Source of the DNA: Sulfurospirillum sp. | GTDB taxonomy: Bacteria; Campylobacterota; Campylobacteria; Campylobacterales; Sulfurospirillaceae | Direction: 5' to 3' | Length of the DNA: 50,971 bases | Assembly: GCA_026987955.1 (NCBI GenBank) | Contig: JALSME010000013.1 | Span: 1-50,971 of the forward strand | Shown here: positions 1,632-46,178 of the stretch, one piece after another | How the letters are laid out: each line of letters opens with the position of its first letter | How positions within the stretch are numbered: position 1 is the first letter of the stretch | The notes under the pieces: generated by a model | The model's input: the letters and a program-made list of their open reading frames with translations, nothing else | Databases searched by the model: none | What the model was told of the DNA's origin: nothing | Program-made: the position numbers and the translations under genes

Positions 1632-2176
1632 TGATAGATGATAAATATAAAGTTTTTATAGAGCTTATTTTAAAATACAACAAGATTCATAACATTACTG
1701 GTGCAAAAGATAGGGCCTCTGTGATTGAAAATATAGAAGACAGTATATATCCTATCAGTTTTTTAGAAACAAAAAGTATAAAAACTGCCATTGACATCGG
1801 AACGGGAGCAGGTTTTCCTGGTCTTATTTTAGCTATGGAACTTCCTAATACCCAGTTTACACTTTTTGAGCCCATTGCAAAAAAGAGCTCTTTTTTACAC
1901 CTAGTAAAGACAACTTTAGGACTTAAAAATGTAAAAGTTTCAACAAAAAGAGTAGAGCAAGAAGAGGGTTTTGAAGTTGATCTTATAACTTCAAGAGCAG
2001 TAACTAACACAGATATGTTAATAAATTTATGTAAAGAGTACATAACCCCTAAGACAAATCTTCTTTTTTACAAAGGTGAGAGAGTTGTTGAAGAAATTTC
2101 AAACATTAAAAACTATAAAATATATAAAAAAGAGAGAAGAAATTACCTTCTCATAAAGGATATAGATGCTATTTAA
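1631..2176 (+). CDS. rsmG: 16S rRNA m7G527 methyltransferase
   Basis: NKIHNITG, DIGTGAGFPG SAM motif, ITSRAV, YKG. Confidence 0.95.
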   Translation: MIDDKYKVFIELILKYNKIHNITGAKDRASVIENIEDSIYPISFLETKSIKTAIDIGTGAGFPGLILAMELPNTQFTLFEPIAKKSSFLHLVKTTLGLKNVKVSTKRVEQEEGFEVDLITSRAVTNTDMLINLCKEYITPKTNLLFYKGERVVEEISNIKNYKIYKKERRNYLLIKDIDAI

Positions 2177-2396
2177 ATTTTTGTTACTTGTTGGTATATT
2201 TTTTGCGATATATATAATTTTTTTCAAAAGATCAAAAAAAGAGGTGTCTAACGAAAGAAAAAAGAAAAGTAAATCAACTCCAAAAGGTGATATCATGATG
2301 GAGTGTGAAAAGTGTGAAACATTTGTAAGCGAAGATGAAGCTATTATTAAAGATGGTAAATTTTACTGTTCAAAGCAGTGTGCAGGGATTAAATAA
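2166..2396 (+). CDS. PP0621-like small membrane protein with Cys-rich tail
   Basis: N-terminal hydrophobic helix, MMECEKCETFV...FYCSKQC; overlaps rsmG end. Confidence 0.8.
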   Translation: MLFKFLLLVGIFFAIYIIFFKRSKKEVSNERKKKSKSTPKGDIMMECEKCETFVSEDEAIIKDGKFYCSKQCAGIK

Positions 2397-2659
2397 TGAG
2401 ACCACTGCACAGTAAGAACACCCACAATATCAAGAGGTTTTGTATAGACAAGGCAATTGATTGCAGGACTAACTGGTTAGTTCAAGAACAATTAACGAAG
2501 TATATGCGAAACCTCTTGATACCCATAGGGAAGCTTAGTTTTAGGCAATCTTTAAAAGATAAAAGTTTTCGAATTAACAAGTTAGTCCTTCAAATTTTAT
2601 ATTTCAAATCTCACCCAAAACTAAGCTTTTGTGGGTGTACTTACTGTGCGGTGGTCTCA
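2397..2659. mobile_element. 263-bp MITE-like structured element
   Basis: 31-bp terminal inverted repeats (2397-2427 / 2629-2659, 2 mismatches), flanked by TAA on both sides (or ATAAT if the ends are 2398/2658); no transposase. Confidence 0.85.
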
Positions 2660-2661
2660 TA

Positions 2662-3042
2662 ATGATTATTATTGGTCATGAGCTTATACCGTATAGTCCG
2701 CTATATAAAGTTTCATCTAAAGATGAGATACAAAAGACAGTACCCAACTCAACCATTTTTATGAACTTTTCTCATATAAAATTGGCCAAATATGCACTAT
2801 CTCAAGATATCAATATAGCTCTACATGTAGAGGGTATAAAAGAGGCTTGCTTAGCAAATGCTCTTGGTGCCAAATATATTACTGTAGAAGACAATATTGC
2901 AAAAAGCATCCAAGCACTTGCAACTGAGTATCTTTTTGATTCTAAAATACTATTACTCGTGGAAGATGAAAGTGGTATCGAAGTTGCTGCTAAAAGCTAT
3001 ATTGATGGCATCTTACTATCAAAAGCTATAGTAGTAGTTTAA
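2662..3042 (+). CDS. hypothetical protein (probable start MIIIGHELIP)
   Basis: ATG at 2662 overlaps TAA; the longer 2629 start lies inside the inverted repeat. Confidence 0.75.
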   Translation: MIIIGHELIPYSPLYKVSSKDEIQKTVPNSTIFMNFSHIKLAKYALSQDINIALHVEGIKEACLANALGAKYITVEDNIAKSIQALATEYLFDSKILLLVEDESGIEVAAKSYIDGILLSKAIVVV

Positions 3043-19301: not shown

Positions 19302-19471
19302 AAGTTGAAAACCTTACATAAGAAAATTGTATAATTTTACCCCTATCAAACTTTAAAGTAGCTGTTAAATAAACTCTTAATAAGAAATTAAACCTGAATT
19401 ATGTAATAAGCTAAATTAGATCGTATGATTTAGGATGGGTATATAGCAGAAATTATGTAAAATTTAAATAG

Positions 19472-22791: not shown

Positions 22792-31478
<8,687 letters not shown>

Positions 31479-46017: not shown

Positions 46018-46178
46018 GGGCACATCTAAAAACCCTTATGCCCGCAGGGAGTCAAAGAGAGAGACAATCTTGCACAGAATTTTTCATCGCCATAGCTAAG
46101 GCTATGACTCAAAAAAACTTATGCACAATCTTACCTCTCTCTTTTACTCTGAGGATATAAGGGTTTTTAGAGGTGCCC
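46018..46178. mobile_element. 161-bp fold-back MITE-like element
   Basis: 26-bp terminal inverted repeats GGGCAC(A/C)TCTAAAAACCCTTAT..CC, TTTA on both flanks, inner arms also complementary. Confidence 0.8.

Follow-up and report, generated by a model that had tools for sequence, protein, structure and literature searches.

An insert lying between two adjacent genes of a Sulfurospirillum genome is a non-autonomous MITE, and its end-to-end open reading frame probably relays ribosomes from the upstream to the downstream gene, the element itself being mobilised, to judge from its ends, by an IS5-family transposase. The insert lies near the start of the window, i.e., the whole stretch of 50,971 nt that was analysed (contig JALSME010000013.1), where the following features were recognised:

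2166..2396, plus strand: host gene upstream of the insert (PP0621 family), which ends in a TAA (2394-2396) lying in the left target copy
2393..2397, plus strand: left target copy ATAAT, whose last two bases and the element's first G make the ATG of the ORF
2396..2662, plus strand: 88-codon putative relay ORF, with a 1-nt overlap both with the upstream stop and with the downstream start
2398..2658, plus strand: the MITE, 261 bp, with six full copies in the genome at 94-100% identity
2398..2427, plus strand: left terminal inverted repeat, 30 bp, its outer 18-19 nt identical to those with which IS5-family elements of relatives begin on the left
2428..2521, plus strand: core hairpin H1, covarying, with a conserved AGGC + TAACGAAG internal-loop motif, present also in MITEs with other ends
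2522..2530, plus strand: near-invariant mini-hairpin CCC-NNA-GGG separating the two long hairpins
2531..2628, minus strand: second core hairpin, H2, which repeats H1 in inverted and diverged form (its reverse strand scores 32.8 bits with model R1)
2629..2658, minus strand: right terminal inverted repeat, complementary to the left repeat at 28/30 positions
2659..2663, plus strand: right target copy ATAAT, with the stop of the ORF (2660-2662) and, in its last two bases, the beginning of the host ATG (2662-2664)
2662..3042, plus strand: host gene downstream of the insert, coding for 126 aa and conserved among relatives

As an earlier note on this DNA had pointed out, both junctions of the insert read TAATG, and the ORF crosses it from ATG to TAA with zero internal stops. 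The note's supposition that an open frame is improbable here is borne out by Markov-1 resamples of the element, in which the same frame was open in 0.3% and any of the six frames in 1.4%. Its naming of the upstream gene as PP0621-like agrees with NF041023 (71 bits; cut-off 45); the downstream gene has no match in Pfam or NCBIfam. The two host genes are neighbours without the insert in all 13 of the relatives' loci examined, and their junction is a 1-nt TAATG or TAGTG overlap in eight of these and a gap of 0-6 nt in five, the note having derived a stop/start overlap by removing the insert.

The empty allele, which the note had proposed to seek in relatives, was found in runs X8 and X9 (close strains, two studies), in one contig each: Position 2395 is joined to 2662, with exactly 266 nt absent. 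Run X6 has a loose end consistent with this joint, which was not seen in runs X1-X5. The note had described a 263-bp element plus one TAA; the net 266 nt stands, and a 261-bp element with a 5-bp ATNAT duplication, which comes to the same sum, is the better fit. Because the left and right target copies are identical as 5-mers in 36 of 63 copies, and as central 3-mers in 41 of 63, the exact duplication length is unsettled. Target copies that disagree at the centre occur at L157, L158, L163, L134 and G000:C22, with mostly ATTAT or ATAAT on the left and the host start context retained on the right; such mismatches may come from donor bases carried over, from conversion or from assembly. An in-frame TTG within the right end adds 11 codons to the downstream gene (2629-3042), and annotation may choose it as the start.

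The 30-bp terminal inverted repeat, the ATAAT on either side, the empty allele, the presence of multiple copies and the lack of any transposase inside confirm that the insert is a non-autonomous MITE, as the note had held. Its ORF matches nothing in Pfam or NCBIfam, i.e., the interior is free of a transposase. The genome-wide search that the note had recommended placed the six full copies on six contigs, with extra ends at contig edges; the frame is open in all six, and the reverse orientation has 5-7 stops. A scan of species genomes with the end sequence returned 111 loci, nearly all in records titled Campylobacterota, and plasmid and phage collections gave no match to the element. Rfam gave no matches in the window region (E up to 1) and none at the gathering threshold in eight related loci. 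At the contig ends of G000:C82 and C8, a degenerate second element end follows directly on a full copy, i.e., insertion beside or into an older copy. At an ATGA-type gene overlap (L458; G000:C49, ~26727-26765) there is a short remnant with nothing but the right end; it lies between copies of an 11-nt direct repeat and has the look of a scar left by internal deletion. Five loci (L024, L044, L058, L070, L078) hold forms of 49-55 bp with little beyond the two ends; together with the 5-bp duplication, most of these short forms add a multiple of 3 nt.

The ends, which the note had likened to IS5-family termini, do belong to that family: IS of 1.5 kb in relatives have the same outer 18-19 nt and encode IS5-family transposases (NF033581, 181 and 188 bits; cut-off 140). 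In two of them, L042 and L031, from records titled Arcobacteraceae and Sulfurimonas, these outer nucleotides are identical to those of the MITE and the W-T-N-A-T flanks are similar. A transposase with the same repeats, which the note had suggested looking for, is thus present in relatives, but none of the IS5 type was found in the genome's own 143-contig draft (tblastn, PF01609); multi-copy IS are often missing from assemblies. It is likely, from the shared ends, that the MITE is moved in trans by such a transposase. The interiors of L042 and L031 have no trace of the MITE core, so the MITE cannot be one of these IS with its middle simply deleted.

What points to a role for the open frame is the position of the copies that have kept it. 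Among 64 copies of at least 250 bp, 52 with both flanks of at least 300 nt were counted and 12 dropped; forms under 250 bp and the artefactual pairings L248-330, L292-435 and our own C45 were excluded. Host starts, i.e., a start codon within 9 nt that is followed by at least 70 codons, were scored equally at both ends. Such a start lies at the 3' end of the ORF in 20 of 24 open copies and in 3 of 28 broken ones, and at the other end in 0 of 52. Since kin copies are not independent, p-values are overstated (Fisher p ~1e-7 for open vs. broken), and the safer figure is the contrast inside bins G413-G416, where both kinds are present: By hand count, 6 of 7 open vs. 3 of 23 broken copies are at starts. 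As background, 636 of the 2849 ATNAT sites outside gene interiors in G000 (22%, by crude ORF-based gene calls) have a start on either side. In 18 of the 20 start-adjacent open copies an upstream ORF also ends at -30 to +18 nt, and in every start-adjacent copy the stop of the ORF ends 4-16 nt inside the right flank. The arrangement that the note had set against its own reading, random sites with broken ORFs, is not what we find: broken relatives exist but mostly avoid start codons. There are exceptions, in that 4 of the 24 open copies are away from starts and the broken copies L281 and L289 are at starts with no evident relay; L249, also broken and at a start, is split into two ORFs that stop and restart 4 nt apart. 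The downstream ORFs include no orthologous pairs, and a Pfam family could be assigned to 15 of the 18 that were searched, among them HisRS, CsrA, QueC and PdxJ, matched from residues 1-7.

The frame has also resisted decay. Among distinct 261-bp copies, 25 of 28 are open and the other three have one stop each, vs. ~29-31 stop gains expected over the tree, a figure that assumes no RNA-structure constraint, treats distant copies as ungapped and may thereby be inflated. Length variants at junctions (156, 276, 297 and 423 bp) retain the frame. Forms of 400-430 bp (L057, L285, L289, L295, L297) have an extra module of ~160 nt inside H2, and one of them, L295, is open over 142 codons and located at a junction. 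Purifying selection at the amino-acid level was not detected in the ORF by codon positions or by dN/dS: Differences are spread flatly over the three positions (4609/5539/4914), and dN/dS relative to the window copy ranges from 0.26 to 1.39. Because stops are depleted while the protein is unconstrained, it is probably for translation as such, and not for the product, that the frame is retained. The note's proposal that ribosomes pass through the element is, as such, strongly supported by the comparative data, i.e., by adjacency to starts and by stop depletion.

We envisage the following mechanism. The element would duplicate ATNAT on insertion; where a G follows the target, the left junction regains an ATG through the element's first G, and on the right the host ATG stays intact. 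The inserted 261+5 nt shift the frame by -1, such that a single stop/start overlap turns into two. The element RNA has a predicted fold of -111 kcal/mol (z -13), with a terminal stem that begins at the AUG of the ORF and ends 2 nt short of the host AUG. In the mRNA this pairing of the two ends, a stem of 30 bp whose closure falls 2 nt ahead of the host ATG, would block initiation there, unless a ribosome translating the ORF unwound the stem and then stopped on the host start. This would follow the RNA-unfolding or re-initiation models of coupling given in PMC12548453. Translated RNA would also escape Rho polarity. Copies at junctions would survive only with an open, co-directional frame, and the peptide would be a by-product.

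The distribution of copies could have other causes. Downstream expression might be kept by the orientation of the core, acting as a promoter or by read-through as opposed to termination or cleavage, with the ORF mainly shielding the RNA from Rho or descending from a few masters. We regard this as unlikely, albeit the strongest of the alternatives. Elements that lack the ORF, with ACCCATCC or TRCTCCAC ends, show a right-end bias too, the ORF-sense strand folds better through G-U pairs, and orientation-dependent effects are on record for ERIC (PMC2229807, PMC3049150). A sigma70-like site (10/12) lies on the plus strand at 2574-2603, but promoter-like matches are at chance level (3 vs. 1.5 +/- 1.2), and the scan found no terminator-like site. 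Core orientation cannot, moreover, explain the difference between open and broken copies (20/24 vs. 3/28), which have the same ends and core, and it leaves unexplained both the depletion of stops at 66-90% identity and the location of ORF stops on the host start.

That the 88-aa product is itself a functional small protein, selected as such, is very improbable, even though the frame is open in divergent copies, dN/dS is below 1 in 18 of 24 comparisons, and ~11 of 13 phmmer clusters apparently represent this frame: The product has no family match, second codon positions are the most variable, and the frame accepts large in-frame indels, while most copies that lie elsewhere than at starts have lost it. 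We give equally little credence to the frame being a neutral by-product, in which a transposase favouring ATNATG, a sequence common at gene starts, spread a founder copy that happened to be open. Close copies are indeed not independent, and G does follow the target with a mild, symmetric preference of the transposase, seen at IS ends (13 of 35 left ends vs. a background of 19%) and in broken copies; but in the latter it is the same on each side (13/36), against a start adjacency of 23 to 0 by side, and each of the five most distant copies had a 2-5% chance of remaining open. Side bias and stop depletion have largely refuted this neutral account already. Relay of ribosomes through the open frame remains the reading that we favour.

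A core common to several IS ends, which the note had missed, is a less expected result than the relay, and a better lead. Enclosed by other perfect end pairs, the inner 200 nt turn up again at ~70-78% identity, and within the genome the core occurs with at least nine kinds of ends. Over 20 elements, two-sided changes affect 80 of the 102 predicted core pairs. In H1 (36 sequences), 33 of 34 pairs are two-sided; none of 500 shuffles equalled this, in a test inflated by related sequences, and slid controls were ~40% paired. The H1 model has 79 matches in the genome, 70 of them below E 1e-6 and many in inverted pairs; of the 121 genomes sampled from the phylum, 12 gave a match. A 161-bp member of the superfamily with a single hairpin and GGGCAC-type ends is located at 46018-46178 of the window, and a solitary ACCCATCC-type end, with neither partner nor core, at 19429-19443.

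Autonomous elements could be linked to four of the end types: GAGACC goes with IS5 (NF033581), GGGCATCTCTAA with an IS5-like element (117 bits, under the cut-off of 140), ACCTGAGTTCGAC with IS982 (241 bits; cut-off 130), and TAGACTTCTTGCATAA with a split transposase with HTH_Tnp_4 and DDE_Tnp_4, which we take to be of the ISL2 group. In G006, a complete genome, the TAGACTTCTTGCATAA type comes in two forms, MITEs of 269 bp and IS of ~910 bp. Similarity between MITE and IS is confined to the outer 14-22 nt, and the core is in none of five IS interiors. For ACCCATCC or AAGTRCCTRACC ends, no autonomous IS was found by paired-end distance in 61 family genomes, with the loci partly inspected.

The end types also differ in where they reside. 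No ORF spans the elements with ACCCATCC ends from end to end; even so, eight of the nine in the genome have a host start no more than 9 nt away, on the same side, and two of these eight occupy tight junctions. Those of the TRCTCCAC type lie beside a host start in three of four cases, again on the same side. Elements with GGGYACCTCTAA (0/14), ACCTGA (0/5), GGCTAC (0/3) or GCCATCC (0/2) ends were never at starts. Three of three complete copies with AAGTACCTAACC ends (G000:C74, C32 and C102) have a host start 8-14 nt off one end, once more on one side. Since symmetric ends cannot fix an orientation, the core exerts some directional effect; and since ORF-less ACCCATCC elements are at starts in the same orientation, the ORF is not the sole solution, and orientation bias alone is no proof of its role. 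Both ACCCATCC and TRCTCCAC ends carry a Shine-Dalgarno-like AGGA or GGAG, plausibly a substitute ribosome-binding site. The predicted pairing of ends with the anti-Shine-Dalgarno motif is -4.8 to -7.3 kcal/mol for ACCCATCC and 0 to -10, mostly -2 to -6, for GAGACC; because these ranges overlap, the pairing is only suggestive.

Our tentative account, for which we would claim somewhat less than an even chance, is that the real unit is a structured single-strand core, made of two inverted hairpins and the mini-hairpin, which would repeatedly gain the outer 14-22 nt of active IS (IS5 subgroups, IS982) and thus form a superfamily of MITEs that swap transposases. The host would tolerate each end type in its own way, by a relay ORF, by an end-encoded Shine-Dalgarno sequence or by avoidance of starts, and the hairpin may share an ancient module with ERIC-like repeats and have a dedicated binding partner. 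Readings of the core as attC, bridge RNA or retron seem unlikely and were dropped: the apical loops vary from 2 to 4 nt, the internal loops are conserved instead of variable, and the ends match those of IS. A REP/REPIN system with a Y1 (RAYT-type) transposase was also set aside, as the three Y1_Tnp loci of the genome (L480, L481, L482) have no H1 match within ~1.5 kb.

With these elements, what was long ago inferred for MIRUs becomes a natural experiment open to testing: close strains have the site either filled or empty, a single genome contains both open and broken siblings, and the transposase family can be identified. They show how a 260-nt hairpin can be tolerated ahead of hisS, csrA and other genes. 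To judge by the shared core, bacterial MITEs may arise otherwise than by deletion from their partner IS and can switch partners, which bears on the origin and persistence of MITEs. The frame is already annotated in databases as a hypothetical protein, and the relay lifestyle, a precedent that the note had missed, is already in print for MIRUs (PMC12548453).

In E. coli K-12, 15 copies of a 127-bp repeat, which we presume to be ERIC-like, were compared with the core: they have a terminal stem and a long hairpin, with AGGC, and AACGC in about half of the copies, at matching places. Model R1 had no match in E. coli; with the reverse model R2, one H1 module scored 28.9 bits (E 5e-5), and the other H1 modules scored 10-17 bits, the level of unrelated hairpins. 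Searches of the open-access literature brought up no report of this MITE family or of one core under the ends of several IS families.

MITEs with open frames are reviewed in PMC2229807, PMC3184786, PMC10969869 and PMC3049150. The ORF-bearing bacterial MITEs named in Delihas 2008 (PMC2229807) and Delihas 2011 (PMC3184786), i.e., Correia/NEMIS, ERIC, YPAL and RPE, resemble the present element in their terminal repeats, target duplication and stable fold, and the 107-bp open and 155-bp closed forms of Correia differ in location, which recalls our open and broken copies. The ORFs of Correia, ERIC, YPAL and RPE are described there as in-frame fusions, whereas the frame here would form a relay between two intact genes. 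MITE cores are stated in Delihas 2011 to be dissimilar between organisms; here, in contrast, a single core lies beneath many IS ends.

The closest likeness is to mycobacterial MIRUs, on which Supply et al. reportedly published in 1997. MIRUs insert at start codons and have an internal ORF coupled to the host gene, with a probably minimal impact on expression, according to PMC12548453; the same start-codon insertion and coupled ORF recur in 20 of the 24 open copies here. The present element differs in its length of 261 bp, in its IS-type ends of 30 bp and its partner, which can be traced to the IS5 family, in its coupling, mostly by a 1-nt overlap as opposed to -4 in MIRUs, and in having ORF-broken siblings that serve as a natural control. 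The insert is real and mobile, and its description as a MIRU-like relay on an IS5-type MITE is well supported, the likeness being one of lifestyle.
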